In this document: positions 9,141 to 57,139 of the stretch, one piece after another
How the letters are laid out: each line of letters begins with the position of its first letter
Position numbering within the stretch: the stretch's first letter is position 1
From: Acidimicrobiales bacterium
GTDB taxonomy: Bacteria > Actinomycetota > Acidimicrobiia > Acidimicrobiales > SHLQ01
Assembly (NCBI GenBank): GCA_965216815.1
Contig: OZ244202.1
Coordinates: forward strand, 1,233,762 to 1,297,761
Direction of reading: 5' to 3'
Length of the DNA: 64,000 bases
Made by a program: the position numbers and the translations under genes
Notes under the pieces: generated by a model
Databases searched by the model: none
The model's input: only the letters and a program-made list of their open reading frames with translations
Told to the model about the DNA's origin: nothing

Positions 9141-9150
9141 CGCGACCCTT

Positions 9151-9216
9151 CGCGACCCCGGTGTCAGACCAAAGTTTCACTTTCGCGACCCCGGTGTCAG
9201 ACCAAAGTTTCACTTT
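9151..9216. repeat. two perfect tandem copies of a 33-bp unit 'CGCGACCCCGGTGTCAGACCAAAGTTTCACTTT'
   Basis: Direct reading gives 9151-9183 identical to 9184-9216, with a partial copy 'cgcgaccc' at 9141-9148. It lies between convergent ctaG and serS. The second copy contains the last codons and stop of serS. Confidence 0.9.
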
Positions 9217-10465: not shown

Positions 10466-10546
10466 GGTGCACGACGGTACCGTGCCGGCTGACCTACCGG
10501 CGGTTGTTTTGGGCCTGACACCCCGCGTAGTTCGGGTGGGGCAGCT

Positions 10547-11229: not shown

Positions 11230-11871
11230 GTGGCAATGGACGTGGCCGCCGCACGCGAGCGCTTCGAAACGGAGGGCCTTTCGATCGCCGATGTCTCTCC
11301 TCACCCGATCGACCAATTCGACGCTTGGTTTTCAGCGGCCGAGGAGGTCGGCTACTTCGAGCCCGAGGCAATGATCCTTTCGACGGTCGATGCCGATGGC
11401 GTCGTCGATGCCCGCACCGTGCTGTGCCGCGGAACCGGCCCCGACGGTTTCCGCTTCTTCACCAACTATCTGAGCGCGAAGTCGATCGCGTTGGATCACT
11501 CGGACTCGGTCGCCCTGCTGTTCACCTGGGTTGAGCTACGCCGACAGATCCGCGTTGTGGGGAACGCGGCGAGGCTCGACGACGACGCCAACGACGCCTA
11601 CTTCGCATCGAGGCCACGCGGCAGCCAGATCGGCGCGTGGGCCTCACCCCAGAGCGAGGTCATCGCCGACCGAAAGGCTCTCGACAACGCCTACCGTGAG
11701 CTCGAAGAGCGATTCGCCGGCGGGTCGGTGCCCCGGCCCCCTCATTGGGGCGGCTACCTCGTGAGGCCGCGAGCGATCGAGTTCTGGCAGGGTCGCCCCA
11801 ACCGGCTCCACGATCGGGTTCGGTACCGGCTCGTCGACGACTCTTGGATCATCGAACGACTGGCGCCCTGA
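11230..11871 (+). CDS. pdxH: pyridoxamine 5'-phosphate oxidase
   Basis: ORF 11230..11871. Motifs 'EPEAMILSTVDADG', 'RQIRVVGNA', 'YFASRPRGSQIGAWASPQS', 'IEFWQGRPNRLHDR'. Confidence 0.9.
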   Translation: MAMDVAAARERFETEGLSIADVSPHPIDQFDAWFSAAEEVGYFEPEAMILSTVDADGVVDARTVLCRGTGPDGFRFFTNYLSAKSIALDHSDSVALLFTWVELRRQIRVVGNAARLDDDANDAYFASRPRGSQIGAWASPQSEVIADRKALDNAYRELEERFAGGSVPRPPHWGGYLVRPRAIEFWQGRPNRLHDRVRYRLVDDSWIIERLAP

Positions 11872-14928: not shown

Positions 14929-14965
14929 CGAAAAACGAAGAAGGCCGCCGGTTTCCCGGCGGCCC
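14929..14965 (-). terminator. intrinsic terminator/attenuator inside the whiB7 leader
   Basis: The minus strand reads 'GGCCGCCGG gaaa CCGGCGGCC' followed by 'UUCUUCGUUUUUCG'. It sits ~85 nt upstream of the whiB7 ATG and 24 nt after the candidate uORF stop. Confidence 0.55.
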
Positions 14966-15220: not shown

Positions 15221-15253
15221 GATCGAAAGGGAAACCCTCTCGCGGTGTCTGGA

Positions 15254-15406
15254 GGCCGCGCGGCTAGGTGCCTAAGCCCGAACCACATGGGGTCAGGCAC
15301 CGAGCTCAGGGCGCGCTGAGCCCAAGATCACTTCGAGCTCGGTGCCTGACTGCTGCATTGGCGCTTTCAGTCAGGCGACAGGTGGTCGCCTATCCGCTAA
15401 CGCTCC
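15254..15406 (+). repeat. ~155-bp intergenic repeat element, copy 1 (16-bp perfect internal stem 15292-15307 / 15335-15350)
   Basis: Near-identical to 37339..37494 along its whole length ('GGCCGCGCGG..GGTGCCTAAGCCCGAACCACATGGG..GTCAGGCACCGAGCTC...GAGCTCGGTGCCTGAC...GCATTGGCGCTTTCAGTCAGGCG.CAGGTGGTC..TATCCGCTAACGCTCC'). No coding potential. Confidence 0.85.
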
Positions 15407-15421
15407 TGCCGCCACCCGAAG

Positions 15422-16510
15422 CTAGGCGGCCGGGGCGTAGGTGCGCATGCCTTCGCGCTCGCTGGCGATCGTGTCACCCATGATCCGCAGGTGTTCGAGA
15501 TGCGCGTAGGTCTCGCTCTCGGCCATCTCACCCCACGAGCGCTCGCGAAACAGCCTGCGCATGTAGGCGTTGACGCTGGCCTCTCCGAGCTCGTCGGCGA
15601 GCTCGCGGAGTAGATCGAGCCGTTCCTCGTGGTGCAGCTTGATGTCGTCGGCGCGAGCGCCGAGGTCCTCGAACATCACACCGTGGGCCGGTAGCACGAG
15701 CTCGGTCTCGAACTCGTGCATGCGGTCGAGGCTCTCGAAGAAGGCGGCCAAAGGGTCTTCTTGCGGTGTGATCCCGCCGATGTGGGGTGTGATCGTGGGC
15801 AGAACGTGATCGCCGGACAGCATGATCTTGCCGATCGGGTCATAGAGGCACAGATGGTCCTCGGTGTGGCCAGGCGTGTGCACGGCGATCCACTCTCGCC
15901 GGGCGAGCGTGATCACCTGCGAGTCATCGAGCTTGGTCGTCGGCGCCGGCAGCCGGAACGACGACATGGCGGTCGAACCCGATTCGCGGAATCGCTCCAG
16001 AGCGACGTCGGGAGGGGAAAACTTGTTGCCCCACGGTGTCTCGCGCTGGAAGAGCTCCCGCAGCTCGTCGATGCTCATGTTGCGTGGTTCGAGAGAATCG
16101 AAATCGAGGTTCTCACGCCACTCGCGCCGCGATGCCTCGTCGCGAAACCAGCTGTGGGTTATGAGCCCGACCTCGCGATCAAGGTCGTTGGCGATCTGGT
16201 GGTACCCGCCGAAATGGTCGGGGTGGGAGTGGGTGACGACCACCGTGTGAACGTTCGAGGCCTTGGCGCCGTAGTCGGCGAGCCTCTCGCGAAGCGCGGC
16301 GTACGAATGGTCGTGCGGGAGACCCGGGTCGACGAGGGCCAGGCCGTGCTCGTCTTCGAGGATGTAGCAGTTCACGTGACCGAGCCCTGGCATGTCGACC
16401 GGCAACTGCATGCGTGCGATGCCGGGCGCAACCTCGACTATGTCGGTGGTAGCCGAGGCCTGTTCGCTCTTGGGTGGCCGGGAATCCTCGGCCCGATTTG
16501 GGTTCGTCAT
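15422..16510 (-). CDS. MBL-fold metallo-hydrolase
   Basis: ATG at 16510 overlaps the orn stop (ATGA); within ORF 15422..16765. Motif 'VVVTHSHPDHFGG' (HxHxDH). Confidence 0.8.
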   Translation of the reverse strand: MTNPNRAEDSRPPKSEQASATTDIVEVAPGIARMQLPVDMPGLGHVNCYILEDEHGLALVDPGLPHDHSYAALRERLADYGAKASNVHTVVVTHSHPDHFGGYHQIANDLDREVGLITHSWFRDEASRREWRENLDFDSLEPRNMSIDELRELFQRETPWGNKFSPPDVALERFRESGSTAMSSFRLPAPTTKLDDSQVITLARREWIAVHTPGHTEDHLCLYDPIGKIMLSGDHVLPTITPHIGGITPQEDPLAAFFESLDRMHEFETELVLPAHGVMFEDLGARADDIKLHHEERLDLLRELADELGEASVNAYMRRLFRERSWGEMAESETYAHLEHLRIMGDTIASEREGMRTYAPAA

Positions 16511-20930: not shown

Positions 20931-21075
20931 AATCTGGCGGTCGTGGGTCGTTCGACCTAATTCGCCGATTTCGCGCGACTTCTGGGCCTCTGGAGCGTCA
21001 TACCGGTACACGCCCGATCGGAAAGTGCACAGCTCGGGTGTCACATTTCGGACTGGACTCCCGAACATGCCTCTC

Positions 21076-21106
21076 GATGGGCCGGAACCTCAGGTTCCGG
21101 CCCATC
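21076..21106. terminator. perfect 14-bp hairpin between the MscS-like gene and tRNA-Lys
   Basis: 'GATGGGCCGGAACC tca GGTTCCGGCCCATC'. It lies 26 nt past the 3' end of the minus-strand tRNA. No U-tract on either strand. Confidence 0.4.
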
Positions 21107-21131
21107 GTCGTGTACGCCCGATGAACCGATG

Positions 21132-21204
21132 TAGGCCGCCTGGGGCTCGAACCCAGCACCTTGAGATTAAAAGTCTCCTGCTCTACCCGATGAGCTAGCG
21201 GCCC
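21132..21204 (-). tRNA. tRNA-Lys (anticodon UUU)
   Basis: The reverse complement folds as a cloverleaf: acceptor GGGCCGC/GCGGCCU, D-arm GCTC..GAGC, anticodon loop CTTTTAA, T-arm CTGGG-TTCGAGC-CCCAG. CCA is not encoded. Confidence 0.9.
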
Positions 21205-22644: not shown

Positions 22645-22821
22645 GTGATCGACGCCACCGACCCCTCGCACGAGCCCGACACCGACTCTGCCGAGGCTGA
22701 CGCGCTCGAAGCCGACATCAATCTCGTCGATGCTGCTATGCGCCACCTCGTCGACGGCGACCTCGACGCCGCCGAAGCCGCGCTCGCCGGCCTCGACCGC
22801 GTAAGTGAAACTTTGGTCTGA
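22645..22821 (+). CDS. candidate 58-aa acidic protein whose last 6 codons and stop lie in the 33-bp-family repeat
   Basis: GTG at 22645 gives 'VIDATDPSHEPDTDSAEADALEADINLVDAAMRHLVDGDLDAAEAALAGLDRVSETLV*'. Strong GC3 bias. No obvious SD. Below the 60-aa cut-off of the ORF track. Confidence 0.3.
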   Translation: MIDATDPSHEPDTDSAEADALEADINLVDAAMRHLVDGDLDAAEAALAGLDRVSETLV

Positions 22822-22880
22822 CACCGGGGTCGCCAAATCTGGCCGCGTAAGTGAAACTTTGGTCTGACACCGGGGTCGCG
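22803..22880. repeat. two copies (46-bp period) of 'AAGTGAAACTTTGGTCTGACACCGGGGTCGC', the inverse of the 9151-9216 unit
   Basis: The copies are 22803-22833 and 22849-22880, each preceded by 'CCGCGT'. They are the reverse complement of the unit at 9151-9216. They lie between the convergent small ORF and the histidine phosphatase gene. Confidence 0.9.
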
Positions 22881-26096: not shown

Positions 26097-26545
26097 GAGA
26101 ACCCCGACCCGACGCCGAGGCGGGCGCCGCCGACGAGCTGCGTCGTTGGGGCGCGGCGACCCTCGCGGAGAACCCGGTCGTCGATGCCTTTATCGAGGAG
26201 CCACCGGCTCCCTGGCGCATGCGCTTTCGCGGTGAGGACAAGGACGTGTCGACGATCTACTTCACGCTCGCGCAGCGGTCGCTGCGATACGAGACGTTTT
26301 TCACCCCGGATCCGGAGGACGATCGGGAAGCTTGTTTCGCCTACCTCCTGGGCCGCAACGCCGACATGCGGCTGTTGCGCTTCTACGTCGGCGAGGAGCG
26401 GGCGATATTCCTCGGCGGTTCGACCCAGGTGCAACATGTCGATGCGGAGCTGCTCGACGCTGTGCTCGGCTCGTTCTACGAGGCGATCGAACGCAGCTTC
26501 CGCACGGTCTTGCGCATCGGCTTCGCCCGCCGAATGTCGCGCTAG
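26093..26545 (+). CDS. YbjN-domain protein
   Basis: GTG at 26093 overlaps the mshA stop (GTGA); tail of ORF 25766..26545. Sequence 'VSTIYFTLAQRSLRYETFFTPDP...FAYLLGRNADM'. This gene commonly follows mshA in actinobacteria. Confidence 0.7.
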   Translation: MREPRPDAEAGAADELRRWGAATLAENPVVDAFIEEPPAPWRMRFRGEDKDVSTIYFTLAQRSLRYETFFTPDPEDDREACFAYLLGRNADMRLLRFYVGEERAIFLGGSTQVQHVDAELLDAVLGSFYEAIERSFRTVLRIGFARRMSR

Positions 26546-26562
26546 CGCTCAGCCCGCTCTCC

Positions 26563-26593
26563 ATGAAGGTGACCGTCTCCCGGTCACCTTCAT
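26563..26593 (+). terminator. perfect 13-bp hairpin after the YbjN-like gene
   Basis: 'ATGAAGGTGACCG tctcc CGGTCACCTTCAT', 18 nt after the stop. No U-tract. Confidence 0.5.
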
Positions 26594-26649
26594 ACCCCTG
26601 TAAGCCGTGATATTGCGCCGACCGATATTACTGGCACCCCAGAATGTTA

Positions 26650-26678
26650 TTGCATTTCAATATATGTCATGTTATTCT
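26650..26678 (+). promoter_or_regulatory. candidate sigma-70-type promoter in an AT-rich island
   Basis: 'TTGCAT' (26650-55), 17-nt spacer, 'TATTCT' (26673-78). It sits in a locally AT-rich ~90-bp stretch (26600-26690) upstream of the M23 peptidase gene. Confidence 0.45.
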
Positions 26679-26703
26679 GAGTTTGGCTCCGAGGTCGAAA
26701 GAT

Positions 26704-27987
26704 GTGTCGGGACGATCGGGGAAGTTCGCGCTCGACCCTTGGACGGCCTCGGGGCCGCCGCGCCGATGGCGCGTTGCGATCCTGTTACGATCACCGGCCG
26801 TGCGTTCGCCTCGCCTACCGAGACGTGTCGCCGGCGTCGTCGTCGCCGGGCTCATGATCGGCACCCTGCCGGCAGCGGTGGCCGCCGAAAGCGACGACAT
26901 CCGCGCCGAACGCGATCGAGCCCGGGCCGCGGCGGCCCAGGCAGCCGAGGATCTCGAGCCGCTTCTCGCCGAGGACTCCGAGCTCGAGAAGGCGGTCGAC
27001 GACCTCACCATCTATGTCGACAACCAGCAGGCGATCGTCGACGCTGCGCAACAGGAGCTCGACGCGACCGAAGCGGCGATCGGCGATGCCGAGAGCCGAC
27101 TCGTCCGACTCGAACAGCAGCTCGAGCTTCTGCGAGACCAGCAGCGAGCGGCGTTGGTCAAGGAGTTCATCGGCATAGGCACCTCCGAGCGAGATCGCGT
27201 CCTGGAAGCGGGATCCGCGAACGAGGCGAACCGACGCTCGTTCATGTTCGATCTCGCCAACCACGAGAACGCGGACGCGGTCGACGACGTGCGCGCTGTC
27301 GAAGACGAGGTCGCCGCGCTCGAGCTGACGCTCGAAGGAGACCGCCAGAGAGTGGTCGAGCTTCGCGAGCGCGAACAGCAACGGCTCGATCAGCTCGAAG
27401 AGGCATTGGCCGCGCAAGAAAGCGCACAGGGGGCGCTCGACGACCGCATCGCCGCATTCCAGGCCGAGGTCGATGCGCTCGAGGCGGCGGCCGAGGAGCT
27501 CGAGGAAGATCTCGCCGCAGCGATAGAGGCAGAGGAGGCCGCGGCGCGGCCGGAGCCGCCGTCACCTGGCGAGGAGCCGCGTCCGAACGTCGAACCGCCG
27601 CCGAACGCACCCGAGTCGACCGAATCGCTGAGCTGGCCGGCGTCGGGCACACTCACGTCGCGGTTCGGTCCGCGCTGGGGGCGCAATCACAACGGCATCG
27701 ACATCGCGGCATCGACGGGCACGCCGGTCAGCGCGGCAGCCGCCGGAACGGTCCTGCGTGCGGGGAGCTACAGCGGGTACGGGCTCGTCGTGATGATCGA
27801 CCACGGCGATGGACTCGTGACCGTCTACGGGCATCACTCGAGCCTCGCGGTCACGACGGGGGAGCGGGTCTCGCGGGGCCAGCGCATCGGCGCGATGGGT
27901 TGCACCGGCAGCTGCACGGGACCGCATGTCCATTTCGAGACCCGCATCAACGGCGTTCCCTACGACCCGCTGCTCTTTCTCCCGTAG
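26704..27987 (+). CDS. secreted M23-family (LytM) peptidoglycan endopeptidase with N-terminal coiled-coil region
   Basis: ORF 26644..27987. The start is uncertain: GTG 26704 after 'GAGG', or GTG 26800 giving signal peptide 'VRSPRLPRRVAGVVVAGLMIGTLPAAVAAE'. C-terminal motifs 'HNGIDIAA', 'MIDHGDGLVTVYGH', 'GPHVHFE'. Confidence 0.85.
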   Translation: MSGRSGKFALDPWTASGPPRRWRVAILLRSPAVRSPRLPRRVAGVVVAGLMIGTLPAAVAAESDDIRAERDRARAAAAQAAEDLEPLLAEDSELEKAVDDLTIYVDNQQAIVDAAQQELDATEAAIGDAESRLVRLEQQLELLRDQQRAALVKEFIGIGTSERDRVLEAGSANEANRRSFMFDLANHENADAVDDVRAVEDEVAALELTLEGDRQRVVELREREQQRLDQLEEALAAQESAQGALDDRIAAFQAEVDALEAAAEELEEDLAAAIEAEEAAARPEPPSPGEEPRPNVEPPPNAPESTESLSWPASGTLTSRFGPRWGRNHNGIDIAASTGTPVSAAAAGTVLRAGSYSGYGLVVMIDHGDGLVTVYGHHSSLAVTTGERVSRGQRIGAMGCTGSCTGPHVHFETRINGVPYDPLLFLP

Positions 27988-28065
27988 CCCGAACCCCAGG
28001 GGTGTCAGGCAGCGAGCTCACAACGCACTGGACCAAGATCACTTGGAGCTCGGTGCCTGACACCG
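27986..28065 (+). repeat. short (80-bp) copy 3 of the ~155-bp repeat family (19-bp stem with 1 mismatch)
   Basis: 'AGCCCGAACCCCAGGGGTGTCAGGCAGCGAGCTC...GAGCTCGGTGCCTGACACCG'. The arms are 28001-28019 and 28046-28064. It lies between the M23 peptidase stop and proC. Confidence 0.8.
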
Positions 28066-28111
28066 ATCAGTGAAGGCAGTAGTCCGAAGTCTGGACGGGT
28101 AACTTGCCGGT

Positions 28112-28900
28112 ATGCAGGTTGTCGGTGGTGGGAAGATGGGTGGAGCCTTGGTCGGCGGAATCCGAGCCGATCAGCCCGATGCGAAAATCACCGTCGTCGA
28201 ACCAGACGAGGCGCGTCGGGCAGAACTCGCCACCGAGCTGCCCGGCGTTTCGGTGAGCGAGGTGCCGACCGATGACCCCGAGGTAGTGATCGCGGTCAAG
28301 CCCGACATCGTCGAGTCGGTCTGTCGAGTGCTCGGTGGCCTGGGCGTCAGGCGGGTTCTCTCGATTGCCGCCGGTGTCACGACCGAACGCATCGAAGCCG
28401 CTCTCGAAATCGACGCCGCCGTCGTTCGCGCCATGCCGAACACACCGGCGCTTGTCGGGGAGGGCATGGCCGCCATCTGTGCGGGCACCCGGGCAAAGCC
28501 CGACGATCTGTCCTGGGCGAGCTCGATTCTCGGAGCGGTCGGCGACGTTGTAGTAGTCGACGAGTCGGAACTCGACGCGGTGACGGGTGTGAGTGGCTCC
28601 GGCCCGGCCTACGTCTTCCTCCTCGCCGAGGCCCTCATCGATGCTGGCGTGGCCAACGGACTCGATGCCGCGACCTCGACGCGCCTGGTCGAACAAACAC
28701 TGCTCGGAGCTTCGACCCTTCTCGCTCGCTCCGTCGACGATGCGGCGATACTTCGCCGAAACGTGACCTCGCCCAACGGGACCACTGCAGCGGGGCTGGA
28801 GGTCTTCGCCGAACGGGGTTTCCACGCGCTGATCGGCGACGTCGTCAAAGCCGCGACCGAGCGTTCTCGTGAGCTCGGCCGGGCACAGCACGGGCACTGA
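28112..28900 (+). CDS. proC: pyrroline-5-carboxylate reductase
   Basis: ORF 28112..28900. Motifs 'VVGGGKMGGALVGG', 'RAMPNTPALVGEG', 'GSGPAYVFLLAEAL', 'VTSPNGTTAAGL'. Confidence 0.9.
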   Translation: MQVVGGGKMGGALVGGIRADQPDAKITVVEPDEARRAELATELPGVSVSEVPTDDPEVVIAVKPDIVESVCRVLGGLGVRRVLSIAAGVTTERIEAALEIDAAVVRAMPNTPALVGEGMAAICAGTRAKPDDLSWASSILGAVGDVVVVDESELDAVTGVSGSGPAYVFLLAEALIDAGVANGLDAATSTRLVEQTLLGASTLLARSVDDAAILRRNVTSPNGTTAAGLEVFAERGFHALIGDVVKAATERSRELGRAQHGH

Positions 28901-34617: not shown

Positions 34618-35577
34618 GTGACCGACCTCGCAGCTGCCCCCGCCGAGACGCCCACGCGCTGGGCGAGGTTCTCAGGGGCTCTCAGTCGGTTTTGGTTCGC
34701 TCCGATGCGCGCGTCCACCTTTGTGTTGTTCCGCTCAGCGCTCGCGGTGACGGTCCTGGTGTGGATGATCGCCTTGTTGCCCGACCTGAAGACGTTCTTC
34801 GGTGAGTCCGGCTTGAGGCCCAACCCGATCTACGCCGAGTTCCGCTACGGGTTGTTCCAGTGGTTCCAGTCCGACACGGCGTTGGTGGTCGTCTATGTCT
34901 CGACACTCGTTGCGGCATCGATGGTGCTCGCAGGTCGACTCGTGCGCGTCGCCGCGCCTGCGATGTGGGTGGGGGTGATGTCGTTCCAGCTCGACAACCT
35001 GTCGATACTCAACGCGGGCGACGAGCTGCTGCGGATCTGGTGCGCCTACTTCGCCATCTATGCGCTGATCACGCCGAACGCGATCACGAGCCGATCGCTC
35101 GGATCCCTCTTCGGACCGGACCGCGACGACGCGGTTGCACCGATGTGGCTGCTGCGTGTCGTGCAGATACAGATGACGATCATCTATCCCGCGTCGGTGA
35201 TCGCCAAGCTCGACGGCGACCGCTGGCACGACGGCACGGCCGCCCTCTATGCCTTCCAGCTCGAGGACTTCAAGCGGTTCTGGGTGCCCGATGTGGTGGC
35301 CGACAACCTCGTTGTCGGCTGGGTGCTCACCTACGGAACGCTCCTGCTCGAGGTCCTGATCCCGGTCATGTTGTGGATCCCCCGCACCCGCCGTGTTGCG
35401 ATCGTCGCAGGGATCGCGTTGCACGTGGGCTTCGACTACGCCATGCGACTCGGCTTCTTCGCCTGGTCGATGACGATCGGCTACATCGCGTTCCTGACGG
35501 CCTCGGAGGCCGACTGGGTGCTCCGCAGGCTTCCGTTCAGCCGGACGCGAGTCCGTCGCGCGGCAAGACAACGGTGA
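34618..35577 (+). CDS. HTTM-domain (vitamin K-dependent gamma-carboxylase-like / SdpB-like) membrane protein
   Basis: ORF 34618..35577. 'FWFAPMRASTFVLFRSALAVTVLVWM' and polytopic, typical of the HTTM family. Confidence 0.8.
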   Translation: MTDLAAAPAETPTRWARFSGALSRFWFAPMRASTFVLFRSALAVTVLVWMIALLPDLKTFFGESGLRPNPIYAEFRYGLFQWFQSDTALVVVYVSTLVAASMVLAGRLVRVAAPAMWVGVMSFQLDNLSILNAGDELLRIWCAYFAIYALITPNAITSRSLGSLFGPDRDDAVAPMWLLRVVQIQMTIIYPASVIAKLDGDRWHDGTAALYAFQLEDFKRFWVPDVVADNLVVGWVLTYGTLLLEVLIPVMLWIPRTRRVAIVAGIALHVGFDYAMRLGFFAWSMTIGYIAFLTASEADWVLRRLPFSRTRVRRAARQR

Positions 35578-36847
35578 AGACGGTGCCGACCCCGACCTCG
35601 CTGTCGACGTCGATCGAGCCCCCGTGCGCACGCACGAACTCCGCCGCGATCGCCAAGCCGAGTCCGCTGCCCCCGGTCGATCGGCTGCGCGATGCGTCGA
35701 CACGTGAGAACCGGTCGAAGATGCGCGGTAGCTCCTCGGCGGGGATACCACAGCCGGTGTCGCGCACGTCGACAGCGATGCGATCGGAGTCCTCGACGCT
35801 CATGGTCACCGATCCTCCCGCCTCGGTGTGTTCGATCGCGCTGGCGACGAGGTTGGTGAGCATCTGCTGAATGCGGTGGTCGTCGACGAAGGCCATCGCC
35901 CCCGTCGTGTCTTCGCAGCCAGCGTGACGCCCGCGGCATCGGCTGCCGGTCGGCTGACCGAAGCCACCCGCTCTACTAGATCACCGATGTCGCAGTTCGC
36001 TCGGCGAAGCTGGAGCCGCCCTGCATCGGCCAGGGAGAGCTGCTGCAGGTCGTCGACAAGCCTCTAGAGTCTCGTCACCTCGTCGTGGAGCAGATCGACC
36101 GTCTCCGGAGCCGGTTCGACCACCCTGTCCTGTACCCCTCGAGATACCCACGAAGGTTGGAAAGCGGCGTGCGCAGCTCGTGGGCGACGTCGGTCGTCAA
36201 TCTACGCCGCGCCTGATCCTCCGACTGCAGCGACGAGGCCATGTCGTTGAACGCCGTGCCGAGTAGTTCGAGCTCGGTAGCCCCGCCGACCTCGACGCGC
36301 GTCGCGAGGTCACCGGTCGACATGCGCCGCGCCGCCCCGGTCAACGACTCGATTGGCTCGACGATTCGACGCGCTAGGAGCACGGTCGCAGCGGCAGCAG
36401 CTGCGACGACGCCGGCGACGGCGATCCAGAACCAGGCGGATCGTCCCGAGGTGAATGGGCTGGCAGTATCGGAGCCGATGCCGACGAACAGCTGCAGCGG
36501 CGGTGCGGTGACAGCGCCGCCGAAGTCGGGTGGGATCGAGACCAGCTCCTCGTCGAGCGGGGGCCGCCCGGGAGGAACTGTTCAGGTGGGATCTCGAACT
36601 CGATCAGCGTGCTCGACGGATCGACGATGGTCGCTTCGCGGGGAAGCGGTTGTGGCTCTCCGTCGACCAGCAGTGCGCTGTCGGCCAGTACGTCGCCGTC
36701 CAGTGTTGCTACGGCGATGCGTTCGTCGAAGGCGCGGGCCAGCGCCTCGACCTCGGTCTCGACACCGATCCAGCTGGCACGATCGTGCCCGTAGAACGCG
36801 AGCGAGTCGCGGATGATGATCTCAGCATCGAGGTCGCTTTCGAGCGA
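35537..36847 (-). pseudogene. decayed sensor histidine kinase (sensor domain, TM2, HAMP, HisKA, HATPase_c) with 3 frameshifts and 1 in-frame stop
   Basis: Fragments: ORF 35537..35896 (HATPase 'DTGCGIP', 'GGSGLGLAIA'), ORF 36075..36383 (HAMP plus H-box 'DVAHELRTPL') and the tail of ORF 36374..37330 (sensor domain). Frameshifts fall at homopolymers 35899-35903, 36135-36138 and 36559-36563. An in-frame TAG sits at 36064-36066 ('EVTRL*RLVDDLQQLSLADAG'). TM1 and the N-terminus are missing. Confidence 0.65.
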
Positions 36848-37330
36848 GCGGTCGAACCCGTCGTAGTCGAACCCGAACGCCGCTTCGAACAGTTCTTTGC
36901 GGGAGAACGCCCGTCCCGGATCTGCGGCGACTGTCGCGAGGATTGCGAACTCCTTCGGAGTCGTGACCACCGGGGTTCCGTCGATCGCCACCTCATGGCG
37001 TGATCGGTCGACCACCAACGTGCCGGCGACGAGCGACCGGGCTGTCTCGCGGCTGTTCGTGCGGCGCAACAGCGTCCTAACTCGTGCCACCAACTCGCGT
37101 GGACTGAATGGCTTGGCGACGTAGTCGTCGGCCCCGAGATCGAGCCCGAGAAGCATGTCGTCCTCGGTCGAGCGGGCGGTCAACATGATGATCGGGACCT
37201 CGCTCTCGTGGCGCAGAACGCGACAGACGTCGAGCCCGTCGACCTTCGGCATCATGACGTCGAGCAACACAAGGTCGGGCTCCCGACGCCGAGCCTGATC
37301 GATTGCGGCTCGACCGTCACCAACGACCAC
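36848..37330 (-). pseudogene. remnant of an OmpR-family response regulator, truncated at both ends
   Basis: 'VVVGDGRAAIDQARRREPDLVLLDVMMPKVDGL...MLTARSTEDD...DDYVAKPFSPRELVARV' followed by 'TPKEFAILATVAADPGRAFSRKELFEAAFGFDYDGFDR'. The beta1/acidic-pocket N-terminus is absent and repeat copy 2 sits in its place. The recognition helix and wing are absent and the frame runs straight into kinase sensor-domain sequence. Confidence 0.6.
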
Positions 37331-37338
37331 GACACTGT

Positions 37339-37494
37339 GGCCGCGCGGTTGGGTGCCTAAGCCCGAACCACATGGGTGTCAGGCACCGAGCTCAAGGCGC
37401 GCTGAGCCCAAGATTGCTACGAGCTCGGTGCCTGACACCGCTGCATTGGCGCTTTCAGTCAGGCGTCAGGTGGTCACTTATCCGCTAACGCTCC
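37339..37494 (+). repeat. ~155-bp intergenic repeat element, copy 2 (19-bp perfect stem 37375-37393 / 37421-37439)
   Basis: Aligns with 15254..15406 over its full length. It abuts the truncated 5' end of the response-regulator remnant. Confidence 0.85.
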
Positions 37495-37550
37495 CGACAC
37501 CATGGTGGTTCGGACTCGCACGGGTAATCCGCGCGGTCTCCTGACACCGG

Positions 37551-38025
37551 TTACGCGGATTCGGCGACCGGCGGGCAGAACTCCATGACGACCTCACCGC
37601 AGTCTTCGGGCAGCTCGTCGCCGTACCGTTCCGCGAAGAACTCGTCGACGAGCTCCCATGTGGCTTCGTCGGTGTTCTCGTCGAAGACCGGGAAGCGGAT
37701 GCCGAGCTCGTCGTTTTCGACTTCGACGGTGATGCCGTTGGCGGCGAGGTGGGCGACGAGTTCGTCGGTCTCCTTGTTGAGCTCAGCGAGCTCTTCGGCC
37801 GATGGTTCCCAACCCCGGGGGGTATCTCGCATTCGATGATGCCCCGCCCGGTGGGTGGTCGACGGGAGGGGCCACATTCGGTGGTGGCTCGTTGGCGTCG
37901 GTCGTCGTCGGTGGCGATTCGATCTGGGGATCGTCCTGGGCCAACGACGGCCCGGCCAGAGCGACGAAACCGAACGAAGCGGCCGCGACTCCCGCAGCGG
38001 CGATCCTGAAACGGTTGACTGGCAT
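37551..38025 (-). pseudogene. secreted acidic protein split by a frameshift in a C4G6 run (or an assembly error)
   Basis: ATG at 38025 follows an 'AAGGAG' SD. Signal peptide and Pro-rich linker 'MPVNRFRIAAAGVAAASFGFVALAGPSLAQ...PPGGAS' are in one frame (tail of ORF 37783..38805). The acidic domain 'WEPSAEELAELNKETDELVAHLAANGITVEVEND...' is in another (ORF 37551..38129). The junction is at 37813-37822. Confidence 0.5.
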
Positions 38026-44515: not shown

Positions 44516-45391
44516 ATGAAAGGCATCATTCTCGCCGGAGGCACGGGATCGCGGCTCCATCCGATCACGCTCGGAACCTCCAAGCAGCTCCTTCCGGTGT
44601 ACGACAAGCCGATGATCTACTACCCGATCTCGGTTCTGATGCTGGCCCGGATCCGAGAGATCCTGGTAATCACGACTCCCGAGGACTCCGACGCCTTCCA
44701 GAGGCTGCTCGGCGACGGTTCCCAGTGGGGAATCGACCTCTCGTACGCTGTGCAGCCGAGCCCCGACGGCCTCGCACAGGCGTTCATCATCGGAGCCGAC
44801 TTCCTCGCCGGCAAGGGTTGCTCGCTGGTCTTGGGCGACAACCTCTTCTATGGCGCCGGCCTGTCGGCACAGCTGAACGCCGCGGCGGCGAAGGCGACCG
44901 GTGCGACGGTGTTCGGCTACCACGTACGCGATCCCGAGCGATACGGAATCGTCGAGCTCGGCGACGACGGGCGCGCGATCTCGATCGAGGAGAAGCCGAG
45001 CCAGCCGCGCAGCAACTGGGCGGTGACCGGTCTCTATTTCTTCGATGGGCGCGTCGTCGAGGCGGCCGAGCAGGCCGAGCCGTCCGATCGGGGTGAGCTC
45101 GAGATCACTTCGGTGATCGACTACTACCTCGAGCGGGGCGAGCTCGACGTGATGAAGCTCGACCGTGGGTATGCCTGGCTCGATACCGGCACATTCGATT
45201 CGATGGTCGAGGCGGCGGAGTTCGTTCGCGTCATCCAACATCGTCAGAGCGCACAGATCGCATGCCTCGAGGAGATCGCCTACGAGCAGGGTTGGATCTC
45301 GATCCACGCAGTGCGTTCTCGCGGCGAGACGATGGCGAAGAACGCCTACGGCCAGTACCTACTCGACATCGCCGACGGTACCCCTCGCTGA
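44516..45391 (+). CDS. rfbA: glucose-1-phosphate thymidylyltransferase
   Basis: ATG at 44516 within ORF 44477..45391. Motifs '[18 protein letters not shown]', '[16 protein letters not shown]', '[13 protein letters not shown]'. Confidence 0.9.
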
Positions 45392-45432
45392 CACGAGTAG
45401 GACAGGGGGTCTGTCCCCCTGTCCTACTCGTG
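45392..45432. terminator. perfect 18-bp palindromic hairpin immediately after rfbA (member of a 2-copy family)
   Basis: 'CACGAGTAGGACAGGGGG tctgt CCCCCTGTCCTACTCGTG'. The 24-nt core 'GAGTAGGACAGGGGGTCTGTCCCC' recurs at 57105. Confidence 0.6.
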
Positions 45433-45445
45433 CCAAAGGTCCCTA

Positions 45446-57104: not shown

Positions 57105-57139
57105 GAGTAGGACAGGGGGTCTGTCCCCGCGTCCTACTC
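57105..57139. terminator. imperfect copy of the 45392-type palindromic hairpin between convergent genes
   Basis: 'GAGTAGGACAGGGGG tctgt CCCCGCGTCCTACTC' has two central mismatches. It lies between the PhyH stop (57100) and the geranylgeranyl reductase stop (57161). Confidence 0.5.

Follow-up and report, generated by a model that had tools for sequence, protein, structure and literature searches.

A palindromic intergenic repeat family, possibly of MITE type, in the chromosome of an uncultured Acidimicrobiia lineage

What kind of element is a structured, non-coding repeat that lies between genes at several places in one bacterial chromosome? We addressed this question in a window of 64,000 nucleotides (64 kb; the whole stretch of DNA that was analyzed) from an Acidimicrobiales bacterium. 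The window is core chromosome of an Ilumatobacteraceae-like bacterium, containing genes for cytochrome oxidase, the bc1 complex and haem biosynthesis as well as serS, whiB, rex and proC (Pfam searches of about 60 ORFs). An earlier note on this DNA had described three copies of a repeat of about 155 bp, all intergenic and all in the same orientation, and had suggested that they could be a MITE, a REP-type element, or a family of small RNAs or terminators. We find that there are indeed three copies, that all are on the + strand, and that all are intergenic. The copies (A, B and C), their parts and two associated features are as follows.

15243..15414 (+): copy A, with a complete left terminal inverted repeat (15243-15297) and a right repeat reduced to its innermost ~10 nt (15405-15414)
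15292-15307 and 15335-15350 (+): arms of the main hairpin of copy A, with a 27-nt loop, followed by the 3' module (15351-15414)
37339..37549 (+): copy B, with a left terminal repeat (37339-37383) lacking its outer 11 nt and a complete right repeat (37493-37549)
37375-37393 and 37421-37439 (+): arms of the main hairpin of copy B, with a 27-nt loop, followed by the 3' module (37440-37492)
27986..28095 (+): copy C, with the left repeat reduced to its inner unit (27986-28009) and a strongly diverged 3' part (28065-28095)
28001-28019 and 28046-28064 (+): arms of the hairpin of copy C, with one G.G mismatch and a 26-nt loop
10511..10546 (-): solo repeat-unit fragment, CCGAACTACGCGGGGTGTCAGG, upstream of the serS start
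36374..37338 (-): pseudogene of a response regulator, cut short exactly where copy B begins; it flanks the element and lies outside it

Copies A (15254-15414) and B (37339-37502) are identical at 148 of 164 alignment columns, with 13 mismatches and three gap columns (~90% identity; divergence 8-10%), and nhmmer detects them in the window with E-values of 1e-53 and 7e-57. A profile built from these two copies finds copy C at 27983-28067 (E = 2e-15) and has no other match in the window. The similarity that the earlier note reported between A and B therefore stands, but its extent of about 155 bp does not, because A begins at 15243 and B reaches 37549. Copy C, as claimed, is shorter and keeps the core hairpin, but it does not stop at 28065: its 3' part, though diverged, can be followed to about 28095. 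There are also two partial units in the opposite orientation, one being the right end of B (37493-37549) and the other the solo fragment at 10511-10546, so that the 64-kb window contains three dispersed copies and two partial units. A short unit, CCGAAC-N4-8-GTGTCRGG, has four exact pattern matches in the window (0 expected), located in the left side of B, in copy C, in the right terminal repeat of B, and in the solo fragment on the - strand; the left side of A is a one-base variant of this unit and is also detected by the profile. The motif GGTGTCAG occurs 10 times in the window (2.3 expected), and the 16-mer of the hairpin arm six times (1.7 expected).

The longer extent of the element follows from an inverted copy of the 5' module carried by B. 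The reverse complement of the last 57 nt of B (37493-37549) aligns with the left side of A only if the start of A is moved 11 nt upstream, to 15243. The two modules read CGGTGTCTGGAGGCCGCGCGG..CCCGAACCACATGGGGTCAGG (A, 15243-15297) and CGGTGTCAGGAGACCGCGCGG..TCCGAACCACCATGGTGTCGGG (B, reverse complement of 37549-37493). Their alignment score is 42, compared to maxima of 30 in 5000 shuffles and 25 among 12,552 real background windows. The right terminal module belongs to the element, since A and B have its innermost ~10 nt in common and in both copies these are continuous with the 3' module. The reconstructed consensus is thus about 222 bp long and has imperfect terminal inverted repeats of about 55 nt, built around GGTGTCAGG, with a GGTGTCAGG-type site at both the start and the end of each terminal repeat. 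This 222-bp element is a composite of two loci, its left repeat being complete only in A and its right repeat only in B, and as such it folds into a rod (-131.9 kcal/mol, z = -9.2). None of the three copies is complete at both ends: the right repeat is missing from A, the left repeat of B is short of its outer 11 nt, and little of the left repeat survives in C. In every copy, the truncated side is the one that touches a gene. The terminal inverted repeats and the truncation of all copies at gene boundaries go beyond what was noticed on first reading. A resemblance of the terminal repeat to the ends of Tn3-family elements (GGGGTCTGA...TAAG) was dropped, the ends here beginning with CGGTGTC and not GGGG.

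At every copy, the distance to the stop codon of the co-directional gene upstream is 0-7 nt. Copy A ends 7 nt from the stop codon (15422-15424, - strand) of a gene for an MBL-fold hydrolase, a protein whose C-terminus is intact and conserved and whose next-best public relative is 71% identical. A - strand ORF has its stop codon (37551-37553) 1 nt beyond the right end of B. At its left edge, C has 2 nt in common with the TAG stop codon of an M23 peptidase gene, and the proC start is at 28112. Relative to their upstream genes, A and B are in antisense orientation and C is in sense orientation. A truncated gene beside one copy, mentioned in the earlier note, is the pseudogene at the left edge of B. 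Its Pfam Response_reg match begins at profile position 28 of 111, the receiver domain being without positions 1-27, and its winged-helix domain stops at position 47 of 77.

The two-component system to which this pseudogene belongs (35537-37338, - strand) appears to be dead, with the N-terminus of the regulator missing and a break within the winged-helix domain. Its partner kinase is frameshifted, with HAMP+HisKA and HATPase_c in different frames; the internal breaks in these two genes could be long-read frameshift errors. At copy C, the M23 peptidase gene (26102-27987) separates ybjN from proC, two genes that are neighbors in four relatives. A leader-like sequence (..TTTCAAT..GATCGGGGAAGT.CG..) is found ahead of the M23 gene in the window; in relatives (loci L081 3230-4001 and L082 876-1510) it is found ahead of proC and ends in a hairpin and a T-run. 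It has no Rfam match, and could be an undescribed cis-regulatory RNA.

The core of each copy is a long hairpin. The stem of 16-19 bp and loop of about 27 nt described previously are present in all three copies: the stem is 16 bp in A, a perfect 19 bp in B, and 19 bp with the one G.G mismatch in C. The core hairpins have folding z-scores of -6.0 to -7.3 relative to dinucleotide shuffles. The two smaller features in the earlier description were also recovered, namely a GGTGCCT segment that could alternatively pair with the first arm (15263-15279 with 15289-15305, 82% complementary) and a downstream CCTGAC/GTCAGG mini-hairpin (15344-15352 with 15368-15376). These alternative pairings are real, but they are to be expected wherever one motif recurs on both strands. 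An attenuator that switches among 1:2, 2:3 and 3:4 pairings was set aside, there being no leader peptide and no U-tract.

What is conserved is the sequence of the arms and not merely their pairing. Between B and C the arms are identical at 37 of 38 positions and the loop at 16 of 27 (Fisher p = 1.3e-4). The 24 predicted pairs include no compensatory changes, in a comparison of three near-identical copies that has almost no power to reveal covariation, and the few substitutions and indels present in the stem break pairs. This pattern of arm conservation points to protein recognition or recent copying as more probable causes than selection for an RNA fold. In outline, the core is a 19-bp inverted doublet of GGTGTCAGGCACCGAGCTC with a variable 27-nt spacer. 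The arm itself is only weakly palindromic, its self-complementarity consisting of a 4-bp GGTG/CACC pairing and a GAGCTC hexamer. In the repeat, GGTGTCAGGCACC is a near-palindromic 13-mer, and a GGTGYCWGRCACC-type site recurs on both strands inside each copy.

The repeat has no coding potential, as the earlier note had stated. The two indels in copy A shift the reading frame, so no ORF is conserved between them, and six-frame translations had 0 matches in a collection of 5.8 billion proteins (a collection that includes the proteins of the source genome, so that zero matches carry no information about copy number). A small-protein reading, based on ORFs beginning MPKPEPHG..., was rejected because A and B differ in frame and such an ORF is absent from C. 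With Rfam 15 at the gathering score, the sole match in the window is a tRNA (21132-21204); at E <= 10, copy A yields only chance matches to miRNA hairpins, at 13-19 bits compared to gathering scores of 52-92. Terminator scans found nothing within the elements, in which no T-run follows the stem on either strand and the loop is 26-27 nt, and a search for a promoter in the element found none. Among the ~60 ORFs of the 64-kb window, Pfam identified no transposase, integrase, reverse transcriptase, or Y1 transposase/RAYT. Readings of the repeat as an integron attC site or a retron were rejected, the integrase, the reverse transcriptase and an array all being absent from the window.

Searches outside the window returned no homologs. 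We used nhmmer to compare profiles of the full-length element, the core, the terminal unit and the 3' module to 80 loci from Acidimicrobiia relatives (~1.2 Mb) and found only noise. Exact gapped-pattern scans for the hairpin gave 0 matches in 185,579 GTDB species-representative genomes, JGI metagenomes and IMG/VR, the same type of scan for the 3' module gave 0 matches in metagenomes, and blastn gave 0 matches in plasmid and phage collections. The pattern GGTGTCAGRC has a few matches in the relatives' loci, by our own estimate at the rate expected by chance, one of them in an apparently coding acidic repeat.

The spacer between the MBL hydrolase gene and whiB, which contains copy A, is ~580 nt long here, compared to 142-484 nt (median 459) in 10 relatives whose gene order is the same. 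It thus exceeds theirs by ~100-440 nt, and theirs do not contain the element. The whiB-proximal half of the spacer aligns with that of the closest relative (L001), which also lacks the element; the relatives have about 70% protein identity (<=77%), a distance at which the spacer is too diverged for a clean empty-site alignment with L001. At the site of copy C, direct reading of the spacer upstream of proC in the relatives' loci L081 and L082 showed that the element is absent. As judged from these sequence comparisons, the family is lineage-restricted and matches nothing public.

Our best reading of these results is that the repeat is an intergenic palindromic element of the MITE or REPIN class, a new family of a known and common kind of element. 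More specifically, A, B and C may be what is left of a non-autonomous, lineage-specific palindromic insertion element of MITE type, now eroded and probably immobile, and we put the probability of this reading at about one half. Dispersed non-coding copies in unrelated intergenic contexts, terminal repeats of ~55 nt, absence from relatives, and eroded ends all support a MITE or REP class. Of the earlier suggestions, it is thus the MITE or REP-type options that gain support, whereas the small RNA or terminator options gain none, given the lack of any Rfam match, U-tract, promoter or compensatory change and the inconsistent orientation relative to genes. MITEs are about 50-500 bp long and have no coding capacity; the reconstructed element is 222 bp and non-coding, and its multiple copies are seen within the 64-kb window itself (three, with two partial units).

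A possible history is that the element was mobilized in trans by a transposase encoded elsewhere in the 4.45-Mb chromosome, with the GGTGTCAGG sites repeated in the element's ends serving for recognition. New copies would have settled in the small free spaces directly 3' of genes, and subsequent deletions may have cut each copy back to the boundary of the neighboring gene. Whichever way round it lies, the GC-rich hairpin would give a read-through transcript of the upstream gene a strong 3' stem-loop, which could stabilize or end that transcript as a by-product of the element's presence, and not as the reason for it. If the MITE reading is true, an IS with ends beginning CGGTGTCAGGAG is expected in the chromosome.

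Among known elements, the repeat has most in common with bacterial MITEs such as the Correia elements of Neisseria and the ERIC/IRU elements of enterobacteria. Like them, it is non-coding and in the size range of ~100-220 bp, it has terminal inverted repeats through which the whole element folds as a rod, and it occurs as dispersed intergenic copies beside genes, including truncated or inactive ones. It differs from them in several respects. It has no sequence similarity to any known element, and it adds a second, better-conserved internal hairpin doublet. We identified no IHF site or promoter, and no target-site duplication around copies none of which keeps its two termini, and the host is an uncultured Acidimicrobiia lineage. 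The terminal repeats of Correia elements are ~26 nt, whereas those found here are ~55 nt. Bacterial MITEs in general are intergenic, near genes and often co-transcribed with them, and truncated or inactive copies are common (PMC10969869). The literature library that we searched contains no paper mentioning MITEs together with Acidimicrobiia.

One observation does not follow from a simple cut-and-paste MITE model: the best-conserved part of the element is the internal hairpin doublet and not the termini. This is a better fit to a REPIN-like element or to a hairpin selected by the host. If the repeat were a REPIN, what replicates would be the ~19-nt REP-like sequence GGTGTCAGGCACCGAGCTC as an inverted doublet, together with its variable spacer, and the copying, by way of a single-stranded hairpin, would be the work of a HUH/Y1 transposase (RAYT-like) encoded by a single-copy gene. 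On this view, the longer modules common to A and B would represent a higher-order arrangement, and the solo units would be decayed singlets. We regard this as the main alternative, possible but doubtful. It accounts for the nearly invariant arms and much less conserved spacer, which form an inverted doublet with the same pattern as in REPINs (PMC3116915), for copy C having kept mainly the doublet, and for the solo units at 10511-10546 and 37493-37549. It also accommodates the location of the copies, extragenic and directly 3' of genes, and the excess of GGTGTCAG (10 compared to 2.3 expected), a motif present in a second, unrelated short-repeat family as well. That three hairpin copies are on one strand despite differing flanking genes is weak evidence in the same direction (n = 3). 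Against this reading, there is no Y1/RAYT gene within the window, and terminal inverted modules of ~55 nt are foreign to REPINs. A REP unit is an imperfect palindrome that follows a conserved GTAG-type tetranucleotide, and REPINs are normally present in tens to hundreds of copies. The arm here is only weakly palindromic by itself (GGTG...CACC, 4 bp), and when we read copies A-C directly we found no GTAG-type 5' motif.

The details of the doublet can be compared to those of REPINs. Near-invariant inverted 16-19-mers, a less conserved spacer, a predicted ssDNA or RNA hairpin, extragenic location and decayed singlets are common to both (PMC3116915). The distance between arm starts is 43-46 nt here and 71 bp in the GI REPIN of Pseudomonas fluorescens, and the present repeat has the extra ~55-nt terminal modules and no RAYT gene in the window. 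Compensatory changes are common in REPIN alignments (PMC3116915), whereas there are none here, among only three copies. The library that we searched contains no paper that connects RAYTs with Actinobacteria.

It is less likely that the hairpin is an RNA signal that serves the host, acting after stop codons as a 3'-end, stabilizer or insulator that works in either orientation and without a U-tract, and that was spread by duplication or recombination instead of transposition. The proximity of every copy to an upstream stop codon (0-7 nt) suggests such a role, as do the very stable stem and the conservation of the arm sequence well beyond that of the loop. Two further short palindromic repeat families in the window are also located on stop codons, and MITE-type elements can serve as terminators or as targets of RNases (PMC10969869). 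However, a U-tract, a promoter and an Rfam family are all absent, there are no compensatory pairs, and the substitutions and indels that exist break pairs. In addition, the orientation relative to the upstream gene varies between copies, one copy flanks a dead gene, and the element is missing from the orthologous spacer in all the relatives examined. A related proposal, which we consider similarly improbable, is that GGTGTCAGG is the recognition core of an undescribed REP-like system of Acidimicrobiia. Several palindromic families, at least this one and a second one with the unit GACCCCGGTGTCAGACCAAAGTTTCACTT, would then be kept by one dedicated protein (a domesticated transposase or a host factor) as gene-end signals, free of U-tracts and independent of orientation, in a compact high-GC genome.

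More improbable still is a cluster of DNA-binding sites for a host protein, in which the 13-mer GGTGTCAGGCACC would form a regulatory or nucleoid-organizing module instead of selfish DNA. The stem does conserve sequence and not just pairing, and each copy has repeated GGTGYCWGRCACC-type sites on its two strands. The sites are nevertheless confined to the repeat elements, with no free operators upstream of genes (the fragment near serS is a possible exception), there is no regulon logic among the neighbors (MBL hydrolase/whiB, M23/proC and the pseudogene), and a transposable element explains the terminal inverted modules more simply. Lastly, an assembly artefact or chance similarity, a caution raised by a chromosome that seems to be of long-read MAG type, with frameshifts in some genes, can be excluded because the copies have unique coding flanks and differ from each other by substitutions and indels, with nhmmer E-values from 1e-15 to 1e-57.

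If the MITE or REPIN class assignment is true, it adds a family from a poorly studied, uncultured branch of the Acidimicrobiia, and it leaves the current understanding of how such elements work unchanged. The repeats mark spots that are prone to recombination and rearrangement, as at B, next to a two-component system in decay, and at C, next to an M23 gene specific to the lineage. For gene callers and assemblers they are a possible source of error, and they may shape the 3' ends of transcripts.

The modular make-up of the copies also resembles that of the pneumococcal BOX, RUP and SPRITE elements, which are mosaics whose copies retain different subsets of modules and which coexist with unrelated intergenic short-repeat families, some of them terminator-like (PMC10969869). 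The pneumococcal elements belong to another phylum and have other sequences, and the tandem amplification of an internal module is not seen in the family described here.

Other short repeats and hairpins are present in the window. The second repeat family, with the unit GACCCCGGTGTCAGACCAAAGTTTCACTT(A), has two tandem copies each at 9149-9214 (+) and 22790-22880 (-). Its unit at 9197 overlaps the stop codon of serS, and the one at 22803 provides the TAA stop codon of the upstream ORF. This family has the motif GGTGTCAG in common with the main repeat. A third family consists of a 35-nt near-perfect palindrome, GAGTAGGACAGGGGG-TCTGT-CCCCCTGTCCTACTC, at 45389-45435 and 57105-57139. One of these sites is just past the stop codon of an NTP-transferase gene and the other is between two convergent genes; the palindrome looks like a terminator, without a T-run. 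A perfect 16-bp inverted repeat with a 1-nt spacer (CGATGGGCCGGAACCT A AGGTTCCGGCCCATCG) is located at 21075-21107, just downstream of the tRNA gene (21132-21204, - strand). Finally, the leader of whiB contains a terminator-like hairpin, GGGCCGCCGG-GAAA-CCGGCGGCC followed by TTCTTCGTTTT (14942-14965, - strand), some 100 nt before the start codon. This hairpin, perhaps an attenuator or part of a structured 5' UTR, is conserved in the closest relative (L001, ~11365-11400).
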